NCBI GenBank assembly: GCA_964519305.1 | Contig: CAZFHY010000029.1 | Span: 1 to 26,380 of the forward strand | DNA: 26,380 nt | DNA from: Candidatus Undinarchaeota archaeon | GTDB taxonomy: Archaea; SpSt-1190; JASMDC01 | Direction of reading: 5' to 3' | Shown: one piece after another, positions 7,601-26,380 of the stretch | Numbering within the stretch: position 1 is the first letter of the stretch | Layout of the letters: the number at the start of each line of letters is the position of its first letter | The notes under the pieces: generated by a model | The model's input: only the letters and a program-made list of their open reading frames with translations | Told to the model about the DNA's origin: nothing | The model's database searches: none | Made by a program: the position numbers and the translations under genes

Positions 7601-8453
7601 AGAGTGCCAGAGCGGCAACTGCGGAGGGGGTGTGTGCTGCATCGAAGGGATGACATGCTGCGACGCCGACGCGGACTGCGCCCCCGACCACCGGTGCGAC
7701 ATGGAGCGGTCCTACTGCGTACAAGAAGGGGAAGACTCGTCAGGTGGTGATGCCACCCCCCCGCCCTCACGGGAGGAGATGAGGGCTGGTGCGGAGGGCA
7801 GGCTCAACGAGCTCAGCGTCCGGCTTTCGGAGCTGAAGGCGCGTGCGCCGAAGCTGGAGGTCACCGCTTTCGAGTCCCTCATCACCCGGGCTAAAGAGGA
7901 GCTCTCCGCAGGGGATGTCGCCGAGGCGTACCGCCTGTCCGTGGAGGCCAGCACCGCGCTCGACGAGGTGAGGAGGAAGCTCAGGCTGGCCATCGGCGAG
8001 CTCTGTTTCGAGGACTTGGAGTGCGAGACGGGGAACTGCCAGAACGGGGTGTGCTGCAAGGTGGGAGAGGTGTGCTGCTCCCGGGACGCCCACTGCAGGG
8101 AGGACCAGCACTGCAACAACGAGCGCTCGTACTGTGTATCGAAGGGCGACGGGAGGGAGGGCCTGACGCTCCAGGAGCGCACCGCCGACGCGCTCACCGA
8201 CCCGGAGACCGTGATGTCCCTCGTCGCCGCCGTAGTGCTCGGTGTGGGATTTGGCCTTTACCAGCTCAGAGGTAGTATCAAGCAGAAGAGTGCGGAGGAA
8301 CGATTCGAGCATCTCGCGGAGCATGTCGACCACATGGAGCAGACACAACATTATCAGGCCCCCGTCGGTCAGTGGCAGCAGCCTCCTGGATACAAACAGT
8401 ACTCCCGGGGGCAGCATGAATGGGATCTGCCGCCCGATCAGGGAGGCCTGTAG
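4647..8453 (+). CDS. Large membrane-anchored surface protein: signal peptide, NHL-repeat beta-propeller, LamG-like domain, second NHL propeller, Thr/Pro-rich linker, two Cys-rich repeats, C-terminal TM helix
   Basis: About 12 repeats of FxxPxGIxVDxxGxxYVADxxNxRVQVF; GTIDLWVKP..WHHLAATW..LYVDG..IDEL (LamG); PT-rich stretch at about 7170-7560; hydrophobic VMSLVAAVVLGVGFGLY near the end. Confidence 0.9.
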   Translation: MQPSPQDRSNGTASKGFSTALLIIWLISASVCADAPPFEYVRTIGTGAAGDGNMEFSNPLGLAIDGSGRLFVGDMANHRVQVFGHGGNHVATLGESGVGGTDIGHFRFPHGVACGPLGGVYVADQQNHRVQVFNSSLDHMATIGESGVSGADNAHLNLPQDVFIDPSGKVYIADTGNRRVQVFNGEGNHIGTIGTTGVTGSGNDQFGNYGPNGIAVDASGRIYVADKFNYRVQVYDSGLNHVSTIGTGAPSTENVGLKAPEGIALDGSGSIYVADGGNHRVQVFGSDGSYVDTLGVAGASGTDNEHFDKPAGVVADGTGHLFVSDFNNHRVQVFRRNMTLLALSFNGTLDGADGEGATSSGTDFVDGVSGSGVRIDGSDTLQYPYEGNVDLSGGTIDLWVKPLWDEVSDLDDHRFLLSAVEDRLRNELRVYRRGGEGRHELWFELVDGSGASAHIAASIAPWRSDEWHHLAATWDIRRSGNGEMHLYVDGEHANGTSGLTLSMGRPTLPISVGSDHLGRFQPDAVIDELHVLNHPLPAGDIRTRYSRLKPEATSPFPYKSTLSSGEAAFVRPRRVFVDANGTRYVLDSGNNRVQVFDSDGKFVRTIGSGGDGQGQFNDPHGIFVDSAGRIIVADLGNNRVQILSPGGEHLDQMGTGLAGVGDDQLNRPSDIFVDADGRTYVSEYGNHRVQVFDSDGSHRATLGTAGAAGSGENEFNSPRGLFVDPLGNLFVADFGNDRVQVFDSGRNLLRTIGSGTGGDGLHGPRGVFVDSEGRVFVADAYNHRIQVFTGTGEHLATLGRTGVPGTDNDHFNYTEGIFVDSRGMIYVVDQLNNRIQVFSGAAPTSITTPTSIPTATPVPEPSATASPTPLTTAVATASPGATTTPLPTATPTTIPESTPTSVTTSEPTAGPLIQPSPVVPPSPTPASPGNAIPTTSPSPSPPARVGITASPSPGPSSTASAANPPPTPTEGAALADNGRLCTSPAECQSGNCGGGVCCIEGMTCCDADADCAPDHRCDMERSYCVQEGEDSSGGDATPPPSREEMRAGAEGRLNELSVRLSELKARAPKLEVTAFESLITRAKEELSAGDVAEAYRLSVEASTALDEVRRKLRLAIGELCFEDLECETGNCQNGVCCKVGEVCCSRDAHCREDQHCNNERSYCVSKGDGREGLTLQERTADALTDPETVMSLVAAVVLGVGFGLYQLRGSIKQKSAEERFEHLAEHVDHMEQTQHYQAPVGQWQQPPGYKQYSRGQHEWDLPPDQGGL

Positions 8454-8679: not shown

Positions 8680-8790
8680 AGGGTGGTCCAAAATCCCCCC
8701 CTCTGAAACAAGAATCGCGCTTGGCTCTCTAGTTGCGTTTTCCTATCGGAAGGCCGACTGGCCTAAAAACACCACTTTTTGGACCACCCT
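8680..8790 (+). mobile_element. MITE-like element, copy 1 (111 bp, perfect 14-bp terminal inverted repeats)
   Basis: AGGGTGGTCCAAAA (8680-8693) and TTTTGGACCACCCT (8777-8790). A second copy of the same length lies at 12856-12966 on the other strand. No clear target-site duplication. Confidence 0.65.
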
Positions 8791-8916
8791 CGCAGCCCTG
8801 TTCGGGGGACGGAGCCTGCCTGCCTGAGAAATCGAGCTCCGTGCATGCAGGTGTGGTCGCCAGGGAGGGCGCCGTCGAAAGGCTCTAATAGTTTCCTCGT
8901 CCACAGGTGGGCGACG

Positions 8917-10854
8917 ATGGCTGGGGACTCATCCGTGGGGGGAAGCGGTACCTTCATCCGCCACCCCCTCCTAGTCCAGGGGGCGGTCGAGGATCGGCTC
9001 TACCAGCAGGTCATCCTCGGCACGGCAGCCGCGCGCAACACCCTTGTCATCCTGCCCACTGCGCTGGGAAAGACGGTCATCAGCCTCCTCGTCGCCGTCC
9101 TGCGCCTCACGAGGTACCCATGGGGGAAGGTGCTCGTCATGGCTCCAACGGTGCCGCTCGCCACCCAGCACCGGGAGTCGTTCCGCCGGTTCCTCAACTC
9201 CGATGTCCCCGACGGGGCCATCTCCCTGGTCACGGGGAAGGTTCCCCAGGGGAAGAGGAAGTTCCTCTGGGATGCGTCCCGGCTCGTGTTCGCCACCCCC
9301 CAGACCGTGCGCAACGACCTGCGGAAGGGGAGGTACGACCTCTCGTCGGTGTCGCTCGTGGTCTTCGACGAGGCGCACCGGGCGCGCAGCAACTACGCCT
9401 ACACCGAGATTGCGCGCCGCTACCTCAAGGACTGCCCGGACACCCTCGTCCTGGCACTGACTGCGTCGCCGGGGAGCACGCGCGAGCGCATCGGCGAGCT
9501 GTGCGAGGCGCTCGCCGTCGAGGCCATCGAGTTCCGCTCCGACGCGGACCCCGACGTTGCGCCCCACGTCCACGCCATCGAGCGCCGCTGGCACGAGGTG
9601 GAGCTCTCCGACGAGTACCGGCGCATCAGGGACCTCCTGCGCTCACTCCTCGACGACCGTATCAAACAGCTCCGGTCCATGGACCTGCTACCCCGCGGGG
9701 GGAAGAGCGGCAGGGTGTCCAAGACCAAGCTCCTAGAACTGGGAAGGGAGCTGCAGAGGAGGGTCGCTGAGGGCGCCAAGGGCTCCATCTACTGGATGAT
9801 CGGCCTGCAGTCCTCCTCGGTCTCGCTGATGCACGCCATCGAGGTGCTCACAACCCAGGACGTGTCCGTGCTCCTCCACTTCCTTCGTGAGATGGAGAAG
9901 AAGGAGAGCAGGACCGCAAGGAAGCTGTGCGGGGAACCGCGGTTCAGGGAGGCGGTGGCGCTGGCGGAGCGAAACCGGGACCACCCCCACCCCAAACTCG
10001 CCGCAGTCTCGCTCCTTGTGGGGGACGAGCTGGAGCGCGACGGCGACGCCCGCCTCATCGTGTTCACCCAGTATCGCGACACTGTCGACCGCATCATGTC
10101 CACCCTCGCAGCCGTCCCCGGCGCGCGGCCGGTGCGGTTCGTCGGCCAGGCGAAGAAGGCGGGCAGCCCCGGCCTCAGCCAGAAGGAGCAGCACCGCATC
10201 ATCAGGGAGTTCAGCGACGGGCTCTACAACGTCCTGGTGGCGACCTGCATCGCCGAGGAGGGCCTGGACATCCCCTCGGTGAGCAATGTGATCTTCTACG
10301 AGCCGATCCCCAGCGAGATCCGGCTCATCCAGCGGCGCGGCCGCACCGGCCGCAAGCAGGCGGGCGCCGTGGACGTCCTCATCACCCGCGACACCCTGGA
10401 CGAGGTGTTCTACTGGGCGAGCAAGAGCCGTGAGAAGCGCATGAAGTCCATCGTGTCCACCCTCAACCGCGGGCTGTCGCGGAGCATCGAGCGCACCCGC
10501 ATACCCGAGCCGCCGGGCTGGGAGGAGCGCGCTGCGGATGTCCGGGCAAGGCTCGGGCGAGGGAAGAGGGGGCCCCGCCCCGCTCCCGCACGTGCGGAGG
10601 CGCCGCCACGACCGGCCGCACCCGCCAGGCCGTCCCCCTCCCCGGCTGCGGGCCCCGCCGCCGCGCCGTCCCGCGTCGTCCGGTGGGTCGTCTCATACGT
10701 CCAGAGGCACGGGGGCGATGCCGAACTCGACGATCTGCTCGCGTTTGCGGAGGAGGAGGGCCTGGACGCCGCGTCCGTGGGGGCGGCCCTGGAGCGGCTC
10801 GCCGCCGAGGGCGTCATCTACCGCCCCTCGCCCTCGCGCGTGGGAATGGTGTAG
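8917..10854 (+). CDS. Hef/FANCM-like SF2 DEAH helicase with C-terminal winged helix and no ERCC4 nuclease domain
   Basis: FIRHPLL..RLYQ, LPTALGKT, FDEAHRA, LTASPG, HPKL, IVFTQYRDT, ATCIAEEGLDIP, IQRRGRTGR. ATG at 8917 after AGGTGG. Confidence 0.93.
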   Translation: MAGDSSVGGSGTFIRHPLLVQGAVEDRLYQQVILGTAAARNTLVILPTALGKTVISLLVAVLRLTRYPWGKVLVMAPTVPLATQHRESFRRFLNSDVPDGAISLVTGKVPQGKRKFLWDASRLVFATPQTVRNDLRKGRYDLSSVSLVVFDEAHRARSNYAYTEIARRYLKDCPDTLVLALTASPGSTRERIGELCEALAVEAIEFRSDADPDVAPHVHAIERRWHEVELSDEYRRIRDLLRSLLDDRIKQLRSMDLLPRGGKSGRVSKTKLLELGRELQRRVAEGAKGSIYWMIGLQSSSVSLMHAIEVLTTQDVSVLLHFLREMEKKESRTARKLCGEPRFREAVALAERNRDHPHPKLAAVSLLVGDELERDGDARLIVFTQYRDTVDRIMSTLAAVPGARPVRFVGQAKKAGSPGLSQKEQHRIIREFSDGLYNVLVATCIAEEGLDIPSVSNVIFYEPIPSEIRLIQRRGRTGRKQAGAVDVLITRDTLDEVFYWASKSREKRMKSIVSTLNRGLSRSIERTRIPEPPGWEERAADVRARLGRGKRGPRPAPARAEAPPRPAAPARPSPSPAAGPAAAPSRVVRWVVSYVQRHGGDAELDDLLAFAEEEGLDAASVGAALERLAAEGVIYRPSPSRVGMV

Positions 10855-11008
10855 TGCGGCGGCGGCACCGGGCCGATCGGGAGCATGGGGACGGGCGAGG
10901 TCTCGGCATTCCGCCCGACATGCCAACACAATTAAAGATTCGCCGCGCGCTATCGGTATGCGCGCCGGGGGCCGAGGCCCGCGGGCGCGAACGAGCGAAG
11001 TGGTTGAC

Positions 11009-12043
11009 GTGGCGAAGGTCGGCAGGAACGAACCGTGCCCCTGCGGCAGCGGGAAGAAGTACAAGAAGTGCTGCATCCCCCTGGGGGTGGAGGCCGCCGC
11101 GGGTGGAGCGGGCCCTACTGGAGCGGTGGCCGGTCGGCATGAAGGTAGCACCGGTCGCGACCTGAAGCCCGCGCGTGACCCCCTCCACGACATGAAGGGT
11201 CTGGACATCCCCTCGCTCCCCGAGGGCGTCAGGGGGATGTCCACCGAGCGGATCGTCCAGAAGCTCCGCGAGTTGGGTGTCGACTTCAGGGAGGAGGTCT
11301 TCCTCAAGGACGTGAGACAATTCCGCTCCGCGGTGGAGCTTTCCGAGCACTGGTGGGATGTACACCCCGTCACGGCGGAGGATCACGAGGAGGACTTCAT
11401 CTGGTCGGCCGCCATCGTGCTCTGGGAGAGGTTGGCACCGGACGTCGTCAACGTGGAGATGCTGGATGACATGATGAGAAAGGGCTATAGCCTCACCGAA
11501 GAGGGGCAGTTCACGGAGGGCTGTAACCTCTGGCTCGACCTGTGGGAAATCCTGAAGGGATGGTTCACCCCGGACATGCGCTCGATATGGGATGCTGAGC
11601 GGGTGTTCAATGGATCGGACTTCCTCTTCAACTGGTGCCAGGAGCTGGAGAGGCGTCTGGGCGAGGCCGGGAGCATGGACCCATCATTCCACGAGAGGAG
11701 GCTTGCCTTCTGCCGGGAGTTCTGCAGGCTCTTCCCGGAAACGGACGAGTCCCTGCTTATCCGCATGAGGGTAGCCGAGGCCAGGTCCCTTTTCGCCCTC
11801 GCGCGAGCCGATGAGGGGGACTCCGCCTTCGAGGCCCTGACACAGGAGTACCCCCATCTGGCGTGGCCCGTAATCGAATGGGGAGACATGTACCACAGGC
11901 CAAGAATGAATGATGTGGTTCGCCCTGATCTTGAAAGGGCGAAGAGGATCTATCGTATGGGGCTGGGGAGGGACGACGACGAGGCGGTCAACAGGCGGCT
12001 CGCGAAGCTCGAAGGGGAGATGGATGGTAGCCATGGGGGCTGA
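11009..12043 (+). CDS. SEC-C (Zn-binding) motif protein with helical/TPR-like C-terminus
   Basis: KVGRNEPCPCGSGKKYKKCC directly after GTG 11009. The upstream part of the track ORF overlaps the helicase and is spurious. Confidence 0.85.
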   Translation: MAKVGRNEPCPCGSGKKYKKCCIPLGVEAAAGGAGPTGAVAGRHEGSTGRDLKPARDPLHDMKGLDIPSLPEGVRGMSTERIVQKLRELGVDFREEVFLKDVRQFRSAVELSEHWWDVHPVTAEDHEEDFIWSAAIVLWERLAPDVVNVEMLDDMMRKGYSLTEEGQFTEGCNLWLDLWEILKGWFTPDMRSIWDAERVFNGSDFLFNWCQELERRLGEAGSMDPSFHERRLAFCREFCRLFPETDESLLIRMRVAEARSLFALARADEGDSAFEALTQEYPHLAWPVIEWGDMYHRPRMNDVVRPDLERAKRIYRMGLGRDDDEAVNRRLAKLEGEMDGSHGG

Positions 12044-18045: not shown

Positions 18046-18133
18046 TGGTGCGGGGGACGGGATTCGAACCCGCGCAGGCACTAAGCCACAGGGCCCTCAA
18101 CCCTGCCCCTTTGGCCAGCTGGGGTACCCCCGC
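18046..18133 (-). tRNA. tRNA-Leu(GAG), CCA encoded, no intron
   Basis: GCGGGGG..CCCCCGCACCA acceptor stem; anticodon arm CAGGG-TTGAGGG-CCCTG; long variable arm; GGTTCGAATCCC T-arm. Confidence 0.96.
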
Positions 18134-22149: not shown

Positions 22150-22503
22150 CTACGCGAACCTTTGTGAATGGAGATTCGAGGAGATGCCTGCTCGCTCCAC
22201 ACGCCAGCGGATAGCCTCGAGATGGATGAACTTATTCCCGATGACGCTCTTCACTTTTTTAAGGAGGCTGTTGATGACCTGCTTCATCATATCATATGTG
22301 AGGGCTTCTTTCGGGGTGACCACAACAAGGATCGACTCGCAAGTGGCCTCGATAACATCCACCACGATGAAGTCCTTTATGTCCTCGGTGATCTCGAACG
22401 AGTCGATGACCTCGGCGACATCGAGCATCTCGTTGACCGAAAGGCCGCTCGTCTTGATGATGAGCTCGAACGGATGCTTGCGATAGGTATCATCTGAGTC
22501 CAT
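22150..22503 (-). CDS. Hypothetical acidic alpha/beta protein heading the aroE-aroK operon
   Basis: 117 aa; stop 2 bp before the aroE TTG; CTTTTTATCT box about 25 bp upstream. Confidence 0.7.
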   Translation of the reverse strand: MDSDDTYRKHPFELIIKTSGLSVNEMLDVAEVIDSFEITEDIKDFIVVDVIEATCESILVVVTPKEALTYDMMKQVINSLLKKVKSVIGNKFIHLEAIRWRVERAGISSNLHSQRFA

Positions 22504-22558: not shown

Positions 22559-24790
22559 ATGCGAACGCGAGCCCTCCTCCTTTTGATAGTACTTCTTCTG
22601 GTCATGAGCCCCGTCGTGGCAGAGGAGTACGCGATCAACGCCTATTCTCCCATGTCGTCCGTAGCGGTGTTCGTGCTCTGGGTGCTGGTGTTCTTTCTGG
22701 TGCTTGTCTACTGCGACGAGATCCGCCGAGCCACCCTTGCGCGCGTATGGTCGCTCGCCACCAGTGGGCAGGTGCTGTTCCTTGTTGGGCTTACGATAAT
22801 CCAGGCATCCTATCTGTCGATACCGTTGAGCGCCTACGAGCCTTGGATCGCCCTCAATCCCGTCCCGACCGCCGTAAGGCTCCTGTTCATCTTTTCAGTT
22901 GTAATATCTGGCCTCCTATTCCTCGTTGAGTGGTCACGCATATTCTCGCTCTCACCACGCATCATGGCTGTACGGAACCTGGGTTTCCTCCCCATTGCAG
23001 TTGTGTTGGCGGCCCTGGCCTTCGCCTTCCCCTTCCTTGATCTCCCGAACGTAGGTCTCGAACCTCGGACCATGACCTTCCCCATCATCGCATGCGCGGC
23101 GTTCCTTGCCTTGAATGCTTACTTCACCCTCACAGGGTATTTCCTATTGACGCGTGTCCGCGTTCTCTCGCGGTTCAAGTGGATGGTTGGTTATTCGGTC
23201 CTGCTCACATGCCTTATGATCGTGATGATTGGCGAGTACGTGGCAACTCCTGAGGGTATGCGCGTCGCCGTGTACGCGCCCATCGTTTTCCCTCTCTTTA
23301 CGGGTACCCTCATCCTACTCATAGGCTACGTGCTCCATCTTCAAGCGATGCAGCTTTTCGTCAAGGCCTTGCTCCCTCAGAGTACTGAACAGGAGGTCTC
23401 CGAGATCGAGGGTGAACTAGCGCTTGAGGTCATAACTTACCTTGCAGGTCGCTTCATCAGCGAGGCACCGATAGAGGGCATGCTCATTAAAGCGGTCCGG
23501 GACGAGCCCGCTCTTGCACAGCTCAAGTACGACCGGGAAAAGCGTTGTCTAAAGACCAAGGGTCTTGACACGTCCTCCGAAGCGGTCCTAGTTGGGCTCA
23601 CCGACCTCTACCAGACCCTGTTCGATAGCATCGTCAGGTTCCACCCGCCGGTCGTGGACGAGGACTATACCGAGGATTCACTGAAGGCTCGACTTCTGAA
23701 GCGTTTCAGCGAACAGATCGAGGAACTCCCTCCCAAGATCACAGGGCACCTTCTACCCCGCTCTCGTGTACTAATGACCGCTTTCCAGGAGACCATGGAC
23801 GCCCTTCTTTCCGCTCTTCCATTAGAGGCAGGGTTCAGCACGGCCGTTGCCGACAAGGCACATGAGGCGTGGGAGGGCGAGTTCTTCGAACATGTGGACA
23901 GCGGTCTTGCTTTCGATGCTGAAGGTTTCTTCAAAGAACTCGAAGAGGAAGGGCAGGACGAGGAAGAGATTGTGGACGTTGCCATTCAGAAGTATCTCAA
24001 AGCACACCGTGTGATGTTCGCACCAATAACGCGGCTCATTGATCACAAGCACCTGAAAGCTCTCCTTGAGGAACATGTTCGTAAGGTTGTCGAGAAACCA
24101 CTTTATCGGGCGGCCGATGTCTCGGAGCTCCTGCTCAACGCCTATTTCGCACGTGATCACAGTTGGGGCCTCCAGGAACTGGAGACGGAGATTGGCAGGC
24201 TCCATGCAGGATATCTTACATTATTGGCGGCAGATCCCGGCTTTCCCAAAGAGCGCTTCTGTGCTGCCTTCCTTGCTGAGAACCTCGAGCATTACCGTAA
24301 CGCTCTATGGGTGACACAGGCGAAGCACGCCGTGCTGACCGAGTTCATCTCAGCCTATCTGCCGGCCGAGGCCCTGCTGAATGAGAACGCCCTGAAGCTG
24401 ATGCGCATTGATGCGACAATCGAGGGCGTAACAGAAATCGGCACTAATGTCTATAGAGTGGGCGATCGATTCGCGGACATTGAGTGGAGCGTGAAGAAAG
24501 CGCTGGAGAGCTTTCCTCCTTCCGGTGTATGCACCGTCCTCTCCTTACCGGTACCACTTCTCCAGAAGGAACCTCTGGAACTCTACAGGTTCACTAGTGC
24601 CCTCAAGAGCTTGAGCGAGACCTATAATGTCACCTTCATCCTTGAGGTCAACAACGAACTGTGCGACGATCGGTCCTTCGCCGTTCTGTCCGACCTCAGC
24701 GAGGTTGTGATCGAGGCGAAACGGGATGGTCGGATCAAAGCTCAGATTGTGGGGACAACCAAGGAATCTTACGCTTCCCTCACCCTTTAA
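22559..24790 (+). CDS. Multi-pass membrane protein (signal peptide plus about 7 TM helices) with helical cytoplasmic region and C-terminal degenerate KaiC/RAD55-like domain
   Basis: Hydrophobic segments within about aa 1-265. C-terminal SWGLQELETEIGRLHAGYLTLLAADPGFPKERF..LSDLSEVVIE follows the KaiC/RAD55 pattern with a broken P-loop. Confidence 0.75.
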   Translation: MRTRALLLLIVLLLVMSPVVAEEYAINAYSPMSSVAVFVLWVLVFFLVLVYCDEIRRATLARVWSLATSGQVLFLVGLTIIQASYLSIPLSAYEPWIALNPVPTAVRLLFIFSVVISGLLFLVEWSRIFSLSPRIMAVRNLGFLPIAVVLAALAFAFPFLDLPNVGLEPRTMTFPIIACAAFLALNAYFTLTGYFLLTRVRVLSRFKWMVGYSVLLTCLMIVMIGEYVATPEGMRVAVYAPIVFPLFTGTLILLIGYVLHLQAMQLFVKALLPQSTEQEVSEIEGELALEVITYLAGRFISEAPIEGMLIKAVRDEPALAQLKYDREKRCLKTKGLDTSSEAVLVGLTDLYQTLFDSIVRFHPPVVDEDYTEDSLKARLLKRFSEQIEELPPKITGHLLPRSRVLMTAFQETMDALLSALPLEAGFSTAVADKAHEAWEGEFFEHVDSGLAFDAEGFFKELEEEGQDEEEIVDVAIQKYLKAHRVMFAPITRLIDHKHLKALLEEHVRKVVEKPLYRAADVSELLLNAYFARDHSWGLQELETEIGRLHAGYLTLLAADPGFPKERFCAAFLAENLEHYRNALWVTQAKHAVLTEFISAYLPAEALLNENALKLMRIDATIEGVTEIGTNVYRVGDRFADIEWSVKKALESFPPSGVCTVLSLPVPLLQKEPLELYRFTSALKSLSETYNVTFILEVNNELCDDRSFAVLSDLSEVVIEAKRDGRIKAQIVGTTKESYASLTL

Positions 24791-24816
24791 CGGTTGCTGG
24801 GCCCCCTCGCCGTATA

Positions 24817-24824
24817 TTTATATA
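24817..24824 (+). promoter_or_regulatory. TATA box for the KaiC-like operon
   Basis: TTTATATA about 24 bp before ATG 24848. Confidence 0.65.
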
Positions 24825-24847
24825 ATATGTCATAGTTGGCTGGGCCG

Positions 24848-25561
24848 ATGAGCTATACCTTGGGCTTGGGCCCGCTCGATGCTGTAGTGGGTGAGGTGCC
24901 TGGCGGCTCGAACATGGTCATATTGGGCCCCCCCATGAGCCATAAATCAGAAGTAGCAAAGATCCTCATGCACCGGGCACTGGAGCGTGAGGAAGGTGTC
25001 ATCTACATAAGTACGAACGATACGGGTGAGAAGCTCCTCGACTGGTTCGATGCCAACGGCCTCGACCTAGAGCCTCATGTTGAACGTTTCGGTATTATCG
25101 ACTGTGTATCAGCATCTGTGAACGTCGGTCTGAGTGGTCCTGTCCACACATCCATCCGTCAGGTCAACGGTCCAATGGACATGGCAGGCATGACGATCGA
25201 GGTCACCGACCTCCTCAATACCTTGTGGCGGAAGCAGAATATCTCGAAAGTCTGGATCTTCGTGGACTCCTTGTCCATTATCCTCATGTATGCCAATCTC
25301 CCCACAGTGTTCCGATTCCTGCACGTGCTATCCAGCACCGTGAGGAAGATAGATGCCATGGGCGTGTTTATTGTCGAGGAAGGGATGCATGATGAGCAGA
25401 GCATAGTCACTATCAACCAGCTCGTGCAGGGAGTCATTGAGATACGTAAGGAAAGTGACGCTAAGGAAATGCGCGTTGTAGGCCTTCGATCCACGCCGTC
25501 CGAATGGTACAAGTATAATGTCCAGAGCGGTAACATCCAGTTCATGGAGGAGGGTCCGTGA
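24848..25561 (+). CDS. KaiC/RAD55-like RecA-superfamily protein with non-canonical Walker A
   Basis: LGLGPLDAVVGEVPGGSNMVILGPPMSHKS, IIDCVS, IFVDSLS, FRFLHVL, EGMHDE..LVQGVIE. Confidence 0.88.
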   Translation: MSYTLGLGPLDAVVGEVPGGSNMVILGPPMSHKSEVAKILMHRALEREEGVIYISTNDTGEKLLDWFDANGLDLEPHVERFGIIDCVSASVNVGLSGPVHTSIRQVNGPMDMAGMTIEVTDLLNTLWRKQNISKVWIFVDSLSIILMYANLPTVFRFLHVLSSTVRKIDAMGVFIVEEGMHDEQSIVTINQLVQGVIEIRKESDAKEMRVVGLRSTPSEWYKYNVQSGNIQFMEEGP

Positions 25562-26380
25562 TCCTTCCCACATGCATTCCCAAGCTCGACGCCCTCCTCG
25601 GCGGCGGCGTTCCTGGCGGTCGGTCCCTTCTATATCTGATCCAACCCGGTATCGACGGGAGCGTGTTCGGGCTCCAGACCGCGGTCAAGAGTATTGAGAA
25701 CGGTATGCATGGGGTGTTCGTTGTATCGACCACTCATCCATCGAAGGTCCAGGACTCCGTCGAGGGCTTCGGTTGGGACTTCGAGGTCATCAAGGACCGA
25801 CTCAACATCATAGACCTTCACTCCGGACTGACCAAATCCCCTTCCGATGCGAAACACGTGGTTGAGGACCCTGAGGACCTTGAGAGCATCGATGCCACTA
25901 TGATCCAGGCCATCGATAACTCCACAGGCGCTCTGCTGTTCTTCGAGTCCCTCTCGACCATCATGGACCTCTGCGGTGAGGAACGGTCACTGGAGTACGT
26001 GCATCGCTGGTTGAAGCAGGCACGGCTCAATGACTGTGTCGTTATCGCTAACTTCACTGCCTGGCCTTATGCGGAGGAGACAGTCTCCCGGATCCGCGAT
26101 ACGCTCTTCAATGCCGTGGTCCGGGTCGGGGGCGTGGGTGAGCGGGTGATGTTCGGACAGTACTACGGAGTGCTGCGAGCGGATTGGATGGACACCCAGA
26201 ACGAACGAACCCTGTTGTTCAAGGTATCGCGGCCCGGTGGAGTTAAGGTCTACATCCCGAAGCTTCTCGTCACCGGACCGTTCAACGCCGGGAAATCTAC
26301 TTTCGTACAGTCCCTTTCCAACACCTCGGTGTCGGTGGACCGTCTCGGGACGACCATTGCCCTTGACTTCGGCCATATAG
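25558..26380 (+). CDS. Fusion of a degenerate KaiC/RAD55-like domain and an MglA/Arf-like small GTPase, 3' end outside window
   Basis: Absent from the ORF track because it has no stop. GTG overlaps the upstream TGA after GGAGGAGG. Reads MILPTCIPKLDALLGGGVPGGRSLLYLIQPGIDG..FFESLSTIMD..KLLVTGPFNAGKSTFVQSLS..TTIALDFGHI. Confidence 0.9.
   Translation, partial: MILPTCIPKLDALLGGGVPGGRSLLYLIQPGIDGSVFGLQTAVKSIENGMHGVFVVSTTHPSKVQDSVEGFGWDFEVIKDRLNIIDLHSGLTKSPSDAKHVVEDPEDLESIDATMIQAIDNSTGALLFFESLSTIMDLCGEERSLEYVHRWLKQARLNDCVVIANFTAWPYAEETVSRIRDTLFNAVVRVGGVGERVMFGQYYGVLRADWMDTQNERTLLFKVSRPGGVKVYIPKLLVTGPFNAGKSTFVQSLSNTSVSVDRLGTTIALDFGHI

Follow-up and report, generated by a model that had tools for sequence, protein, structure and literature searches.

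A KaiC-like, GTPase and Roadblock gene module bracketed by seven-helix membrane proteins and interrupted by mobile repeats in a Candidatus Undinarchaeota archaeon

Pairs of a small GTPase and a Roadblock protein are thought to be older than eukaryotic G-protein signalling, and KaiC-like proteins have been proposed as the main signalling hubs of archaea. In 2017 Makarova, Galperin and Koonin reportedly described the archaeal KaiC-like proteins as a 'signal transduction hub' that includes inactivated KaiC (iKaiC) domains. The present work concerns the right-hand end (positions 22559-26380) of a 26,380-nucleotide stretch, hereafter the window, from a Candidatus Undinarchaeota archaeon (assembly GCA_964519305.1, contig CAZFHY010000029.1), where three neighbouring genes join KaiC-like domains to a seven-transmembrane (7TM) region and to a small GTPase. 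A gene for a single-domain KaiC-like protein, a gene for a fusion of a nucleotide-dead KaiC (dead-KaiC) domain with a GTPase, and a Roadblock/MglB-like gene were found to constitute a widespread archaeal core module, of which this locus is a lineage-specific version. The two genes of the GTPase/Roadblock switch are interrupted in the source genome by mobile repeats.

KaiC-like hub proteins such as FlaH (ArlH) and Sso2452 resemble the proteins of this locus in being single RecA/KaiC-type signalling domains, often fused and in many cases with degenerate Walker motifs. The locus differs from them in that three different degenerate KaiC-like domains occur in one operon, one on a 7TM family that has no Pfam model and one on a GTPase. 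In Elongator (Elp4/5/6) and in the Rad51 paralogue complexes, RecA-fold proteins poor in ATPase activity form hetero-oligomers. The likeness to these is one of analogy only, namely diverged RecA-fold proteins with weak or dead sites forming one ring or stack, and the module, unlike them, has no link to tRNA modification or DNA repair.

The MglA/MglB systems of Myxococcus xanthus and Thermus thermophilus are similar to the module in that a Ras-superfamily G domain is encoded beside a Roadblock/LC7 protein (PF03259). MglA groups 2-5 lack the arginine finger and have Thr-Thr in G2, GTPGQ in G3 and [NT]KxD in G4 (Wuichet and Sogaard-Andersen, PMC4316618), and the GTPase of the module has the same Thr-Thr G2 without arginine finger, GTPGQ in G3 and NKxD in G4. 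Unlike in MglA/MglB, this G domain is fused behind a dead-KaiC domain of about 228 amino acids (aa), and a second KaiC-like gene is always adjacent. PMC4316618 treats single-domain GTPases and reports that the archaeal group 4 lacks a conserved gene neighbourhood; neither KaiC nor RecA is mentioned in its main text. It also describes the conservon (CvnA-D), in which an MglA-family GTPase (CvnD), a Roadblock protein (CvnB) and a membrane sensor make up a G-protein-like relay. A GTPase, a Roadblock protein and a candidate membrane sensor are likewise encoded at the locus studied here, and the Roadblock protein matches the CvnB5 structure 3leq (E 3.9e-9). However, the conservon sensor is a histidine kinase, whereas the candidate sensor of this locus ends in a dead-KaiC domain, and no histidine kinase domain was found in the cluster genes or in the neighbours scanned, either here or in the sister genome (G001).

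The window is the entire contig C29 of an assembly of 3.63 Mb in 42 contigs, with 99.83 % completeness and 4.29 % contamination. The phylum is represented by only 17 species in the genome collection used, and the 15 of them outside the genus of the source organism have genomes of 0.6-1.2 Mb. The three co-oriented genes pointed out in the sequence-only reading of the window are present on its plus strand as the open reading frames (ORFs) ORF1 (22559-24790, 743 aa), ORF2 (24836-25561, 241 aa) and ORF3 (25558-26379, 274 aa, a fusion truncated at the contig end, where its frame is still open). Their spacing is operon-like, with a gap of 45 bases between ORF1 and ORF2 and an overlap of 4 bases between ORF2 and ORF3. 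The ratios of nonsynonymous to synonymous substitution (dN/dS) relative to G001 were 0.121 for ORF1, 0.115 for ORF2 and 0.099 for ORF3, and values of 0.10-0.12 in all three indicate real protein-coding genes under purifying selection.

ORF2 is a single-domain KaiC-like protein of the DUF7504 type, as established with Pfam and NCBIfam. It scored 74 bits against DUF7504 (cut-off 27) and 42.1 bits against KaiC PF06745 (cut-off 26.6), was also above the cut-off for DUF7090 and matched the FlaH/ArlH models weakly; weak matches of ORF2-type proteins to the Elp4 model PAXNEB were seen as well. The Walker A motif of ORF2 reads GPPMSHKS, with His in the place of the expected Gly, the Walker B Asp is kept, and the usual catalytic Glu pair is absent. 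Some ORF2-type relatives retain GxxxxGK[ST]. The N-terminal dead-KaiC domain of ORF3 (aa 1-228, 25558-26241) was delimited by Pfam and an alignment of 22 fusions; the match to KaiC covers aa 4-153 at 63.1 bits, and from residue 233 on P-loop GTPase models match weakly. QPGIDGSV stands in the Walker A place of this domain, and GK[ST] is missing there from all 22 aligned fusions, so the N-terminal domain of the fusion is dead across the family.

The MglA-type small GTPase domain starts at 26254 and is encoded in the window as far as 26379. Both the intact P-loop and the switch I that had been read from the sequence are in place, as the G1 motif GPFNAGKST at aa 240-248 (26275-26301) and TTIALDFG at aa 265-272, the G2/switch I stretch GTTIALD lying at 26347-26367. 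Motifs G3-G5 of ORF3 are not on the window contig. The downstream G3 and G4 motifs, on which the GTPase assignment had been said to depend, were found as GTPGQ and NKQD, together with G5, in the G001 orthologue, a complete fusion of 390 aa with 91 % identity to ORF3 and with matches to the KaiC and Arf/Ras families. In the alignment of the fusions (n = 22) GxxxxGK and TT are invariant, and GTPGQ and NKxD are nearly so (at least 90 % of sequences). The characters of MglA groups 2-5 are thus seen partly in the window (G1 and the Thr-Thr G2) and partly in the sister orthologue and the 22-sequence alignment (GTPGQ in G3, [NT]KxD in G4). As a 390-aa fusion the protein departs from the surveyed MglA proteins, which are stand-alone G domains of some 160-200 aa. 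Among the 60 PDB matches listed, the solved G domains nearest in sequence are Arf-like, and MglA is absent.

The complete arrangement of the module in the genus was seen in G001, where the ORF1 orthologue is followed by the ORF2 orthologue, the 390-aa fusion, a 123-aa Roadblock/LC7 protein (43.2 bits against PF03259, cut-off 23), a hydrophobic protein of 164 aa and an ORF1 paralogue of 768 aa. The 164-aa product, encoded between the Roadblock gene and the second ORF1 paralogue, is a small four-helix membrane protein. In the source genome the end of contig C13 carries a Roadblock fragment (aa 37-123), the 164-aa protein and the ORF1 paralogue in the same order as in G001. The full-length fusion was found in 9 of 40 other genomes and a split fusion in one more. 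Roadblock partners had been anticipated, and besides the Roadblock gene that directly follows the fusion in G001, a Roadblock gene and an ORF2-like gene were both present within the fetched flanks in 9/9 relatives with the full fusion (checked with Pfam in two). The expected co-occurrence of the three window genes in other genomes was borne out in part: the trio of KaiC-like, fusion and Roadblock genes travels together, but the 7TM protein stands beside the module in this genus only (1/9).

In a large protein collection 1420 proteins matched the fusion at E <= 1e-5, and all 120 of these that were listed are fusions of approximately 390 aa with KaiC and Arf/Ras Pfam domains. The listed homologues (n = 120) come from Methanoperedens, Methanosarcinales, Halobacteriota and Hydrothermarchaeales and bear only names such as 'ATPase domain-containing protein' or 'GTP-binding protein'. 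The caution that related loci might already be catalogued was well placed, the fusion being common in databases. In the literature searched, no experimental study or paper describing the core module or the fusion was found, and genes of this kind may appear in the supplementary tables of PMC4316618 and PMC4858521; neither was there a paper combining KaiC-like, transmembrane, archaea and small GTPase, or a mention of DUF7504 or DUF7090, and the sole relevant match for iKaiC was PMC5847659.

Genes accompanying the module vary by lineage. In G018 (L014:5796-7339) an extra KaiC-like gene and a gene for a TPR-repeat protein lie directly downstream of it. The source genome also has Roadblock genes at other sites. 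One of them, on contig C1 (C1:445963-446884, L024:4964-5885), encodes a protein with 55 % identity to the operon Roadblock of G001; there is no GTPase gene nearby, and it is followed by a gene for a small four-helix membrane protein related to the 164-aa protein of the operon. A third, orphan Roadblock gene (C5:21486-21917) has no GTPase gene beside it and adjoins a Na/Ca exchanger gene.

ORF1 was delineated from the ORF list, hydropathy, profile comparison and a structural model. It consists of a signal-peptide-like start (aa 1-21), seven hydrophobic helices (aa 34-268), a helical middle domain (aa ~283-507) and a degenerate KaiC/RecA-like domain (aa 508-743), and no family match was obtained for it in Pfam or NCBIfam. 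Hydropathy, in agreement with the signal peptide and about seven helices proposed before, gave a hydrophobic stretch at aa 3-21 ending in VVA/EE and then seven segments within aa 34-268, and the AlphaFold2 model has long helices that match these segments. On the same hydropathy grounds the signal peptide is probably cleaved, and the C-terminal part is predicted to be cytoplasmic because Arg/Lys-rich loops occur on alternate sides in a positive-inside pattern. The loops on the outside would be at most ~15 residues long in this topology, so the 7TM proteins would be expected to sense something within or at the membrane.

The C-terminal dead-KaiC domain of ORF1 (24080-24787) was recognised with hhalign, Foldseek and invariant columns. 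Its 236 residues were used as a profile of nine sequences, the seven paralogues of the source genome and two from G001, which align end to end. In hhalign this profile matched the ORF2-type profile with 97.1 % probability (E 5.6e-11, 214 columns) and the profile of the fusion N-domain with 92.4 % (E 5.1e-7). The AlphaFold2 model of ORF1, built from 19 sequences, had a predicted local distance difference test (pLDDT) score of 82.1 overall and about 90 in the C-terminal domain, and its best PDB folds in Foldseek were FlaH 4yds, Sso2452 2w0m and KaiC CI 4tl9 (E 2-6e-6, target TM 0.63-0.69), with further fold matches to DnaB and Rad51-type proteins, including BCDX2 chains. The doubt whether the 743-aa protein ends in a RecA fold was thereby answered in favour of one. 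The assignment of a KaiC/RecA-like domain to each of the three genes holds, for ORF2 and ORF3 by Pfam and for ORF1 by the remote methods of profile-profile and fold comparison. DPGFPKER, with a Lys invariant in the 19 aligned sequences, takes the Walker A place of the ORF1 domain and LSLPVP the Walker B place. In all three KaiC-like domains of the locus the Walker A motif is degenerate and other residues occupy the position of the Glu pair that follows strand 2, in departure from active KaiC-type ATPases and autokinases. Because of their degenerate Walker A motifs the three domains would be scaffolds at best, and a clock-like or phospho-relay role of the KaiC-like proteins was considered and rejected on the same ground.

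The remainder of ORF1 had no counterpart among known structures, and its membrane part shows no likeness, in these comparisons or in Pfam, to known 7TM receptor folds or families (rhodopsin/GPCR-like, 7TMR-DISM, HisKA_7TM). Modelled alone, aa 1-507 reached a pLDDT of 79.6 and gave no match among PDB folds at E <= 0.001 in Foldseek (best E 0.27); for aa 1-515 no look-alike in the protein Atlas scored above 0.83, and the best match of the ORF1 family profile to PDB sequences, at E 0.038, was not meaningful. A cluster bearing HisKA_7TM had an Atlas score of 0.78, which is at chance level. ORF1 carries no output domain of its own according to Pfam.

ORF1 belongs to a family of seven paralogues in the source genome, 736-783 aa long, two of which lie on either side of the module, in its orientation, in both genomes of the genus. 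A word-indexed homologue search with ORF1 returned one orthologue of 91 % identity and missed the paralogues in its own genome, and was superseded by a profile search that covered 1.84 billion representative proteins exhaustively. This search yielded 17 matches. Eight were orthologues or fragments of the seven paralogues at 84-92 % identity, one was a short fragment of 91 % identity, and the remaining eight aligned in the dead-KaiC domain only; across all these representatives the membrane and middle parts of ORF1 were covered solely by close orthologues or fragments of the seven paralogues. The membrane-anchored dead-KaiC family is new.

Five of the eight proteins that aligned in the dead-KaiC domain form a distant family of ~680 aa, in which six or seven hydrophobic segments at the N-terminus precede a comparable middle region, a dead-KaiC domain and a C-terminal winged helix. 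This family was found by profile search in 3 of 401 archaeal genomes, and single-protein scans of genome and metagenome contigs returned no member. In two of the three genomes (L039:4072-7836 and L040:3075-6844) its gene adjoins cupredoxin/COX2-like, cytochrome c and Fer4_5 polytopic membrane genes, and the family may regulate a copper or redox gene cluster from the membrane. The plan common to ORF1 and the ~680-aa proteins fits a unit of sensor and transmitter with exchangeable output.

The end of ORF3 was found to reflect an insertion. No copy of fusion aa 275-390 or Roadblock aa 1-36 is present in the assembly (tblastn with the sister fusion), and neither contig-end overlaps nor a G-domain fragment were found on its other contig ends. 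Logan contigs of four runs from two studies, possibly the source samples, were then placed on the sister locus. In 4/4 runs the region falls into three pieces: one reaching to about Roadblock codon 36, a separate contig of ~524 bases and one from fusion codon 274 on. The middle piece, absent from the assembly, corresponds exactly to the missing stretch, with an identity of about 89 % and a comparable depth. Between adjacent pieces there are overlaps of 6 and 4 bases, and on the fusion side the pieces end at 7987 and begin at 7984 of L013. At 26377-26380 of the window (strand not assigned), after ORF3 codon 274, lies the junction with a multi-copy mobile repeat; its 4 bases, common to both flanking pieces, are likely to be a target-site duplication.

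Each piece ends in 27-30 letters foreign to the locus, and these are the termini of two repeats. Both repeats occur in the assembly only at contig ends (4+3 ends for one and 4+4 for the other, the latter being the repeat at the ORF3 junction), with different flanks each time; one has perfect inverted ends of 13 bases, those of the other are imperfect, and the interiors are unassembled. They were read as two transposable elements, of which one interrupts the G domain after switch I and before G3 and the other the Roadblock gene near codon 36. Many of the 42 contigs terminate in mobile repeats, which belong to at least two families. The frame of ORF3 ends at 26380 because a mobile repeat was inserted there, in addition to the contig end. 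From the last base of the window the frame continues for 15 more codons into the repeat terminus and then meets a stop, and since the fusion ends 15 codons into the element, without G3-G5, the switch is most likely inactive here.

The GTPase/Roadblock switch is thus probably dead in the source genome. Contigs drop rare variants, and a minority of cells may carry intact genes. There are four or more copies of each repeat in 3.6 Mb, and the two insertions lie 460 bases apart in one operon. So close a pair is improbable by chance and would suggest that selection on the switch is relaxed or negative, or that the site is a hot spot. The double disruption of the switch genes is new.

The reading that we regard as fairly probable is that the locus represents a membrane-bracketed, lineage-specific version of the GTPase/Roadblock module with KaiC-like scaffolds, the switch of which is broken in this organism. 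Following the MglA/MglB paradigm, the G domain would cycle between GTP and GDP states, and by analogy with the action of MglB on MglA the Roadblock protein would act on it as a GTPase-activating protein and possibly as an exchange factor. The nucleotide-dead KaiC-like domains, judging from their degenerate sites and from the behaviour of RecA-fold proteins, could serve as oligomerisation scaffolds in RecA-type rings or pairs. Such a scaffold would keep the GTPase beside ORF2 and, in this genus, at the membrane beside the 7TM proteins. In the most speculative step the 7TM proteins would dock by way of the dead-KaiC domain that they carry themselves and supply the switch with a membrane signal or location. 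The coupling of the membrane proteins to the switch is suggested by their synteny. Docking is favoured by the bracketing of the module in the genus, by the fact that ORF1 has no other output domain and by the likeness of its C-terminal domain to ORF2.

Several observations weigh against the membrane-bracketed switch as proposed. Binding between the KaiC-like domains is itself a proposal drawn from sequence; a complex prediction for ORF2, the ORF3 N-domain and the ORF1 C-domain, run without controls, scored 0.00 (mark 0.32) and speaks neither for nor against such binding. In G001 the ORF1 orthologue has an in-frame TAG at codon 51 (L013:11652-11654, minus strand), where the source genome and a third lineage have Tyr, and its longest ORF restarts at residue 63, without the signal-like start and the first helix. 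Five of the seven paralogues lie elsewhere in the genome with no KaiC-like, GTPase or Roadblock gene nearby; an ORF1 relative stands beside the module in only one of the nine fusion-bearing relatives, the sister genome, and is missing there in the other eight; and the distant winged-helix family, which has its own output domain, adjoins no GTPase, Roadblock or module-type KaiC gene in any of its three genomes. Docking is made less likely by the paralogues and distant relatives that lie apart from the module and by the narrow distribution. All seven paralogues also stay open although the switch is cut, and so may be independent of it, unless the insertions are merely of recent date. The same facts would be expected if the 7TM-dead-KaiC proteins were independent membrane sensors or regulators that came to lie beside the GTPase module by chance in this genus and are not coupled to it. 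We consider such independence possible but rather unlikely, since in both genomes of the genus the module is bracketed by two paralogues on its own strand and with operon-like spacing, ORF1, unlike the distant relatives, carries no separate output domain, and its C-terminal domain aligns best with the KaiC-like partner of the module itself.

Other explanations go further than the membrane-bracketed version of the module or lead away from it. The 7TM-dead-KaiC proteins could be a new class of archaeal membrane receptors whose dead-KaiC domain slots into a mixed KaiC-like ring with a tethered MglA-type GTPase, several paralogues (seven here) converging on one switch. This bolder proposal is quite unlikely; if true, it would reveal a prokaryotic receptor-coupled G-protein relay built on RecA-fold scaffolds, and a sister family would use a DNA-binding domain within the same protein in place of the GTPase route. 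A role of the module in controlling a type IV pilus-like or archaellum-like surface filament, with the membrane proteins as part of the platform, was also considered. KaiC-family ATPases and arCOG02603 Roadblock proteins are encoded in or near archaeal type IV pilus loci, according to PMC4858521, and MglA controls pilus motors in bacteria, according to PMC4316618. However, no pilus-related family turned up among the neighbours scanned in the window and at the sister locus, where no pilin-specific search was made, and these neighbours are shikimate genes, ribosomal proteins, a phosphorylase-like gene and a carbamoyltransferase, so that a filament role appears very unlikely. An intact, working receptor/G-protein-like system in the source organism is hardly credible. 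The sequence-only reading had proposed a complex of this kind, loosely analogous to receptor/G-protein coupling, and much of its domain content stood: the KaiC-like domains are as described, and G001 has the complete fusion with G3-G5 and a complete Roadblock gene. What did not stand is the receptor and the working switch, since the 7TM protein accompanies the module only in the genus and has no fold or family link to known 7TM receptors, mobile repeats cut the fusion and the Roadblock gene in all four runs, and the piece between the two cuts is missing from the assembly.

The genes just upstream of the locus match archaeal models, which identifies the organism as an archaeon, and encode RNA polymerase subunit D, the ribosomal proteins S11, S4 and S13, shikimate kinase and shikimate dehydrogenase. 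A tRNA-Leu (GAG) gene at 18046-18133 (minus strand) immediately precedes those for RNA polymerase subunit D and the ribosomal proteins. Upstream of ORF1 and divergent from it, at 22150-22503 on the minus strand, is an ORF of 117 aa with 90 % identity in the sister genome, to which no function was assigned. The G+C content, elsewhere about 0.55-0.65, reaches a peak of 0.72 at 10001-11000, over the overlapping long ORFs 8779-10854 and 10538-12043. Bases 1-40 of the window are the reverse complement of the final 40 bases of contig C37, and the two contigs probably adjoin.

To the GTPase/Roadblock switch and the KaiC-like hub the locus adds a candidate membrane input built with the same scaffold domain, which offers a concrete, testable idea of how such a switch may be connected with the cell surface. 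Decay is seen as well, the switch being cut twice in one species and the flanking receptor gene stopped early in its sister species, so the local copy should not be taken as functional. Lineages with broken and with intact copies of the module provide a natural comparison.

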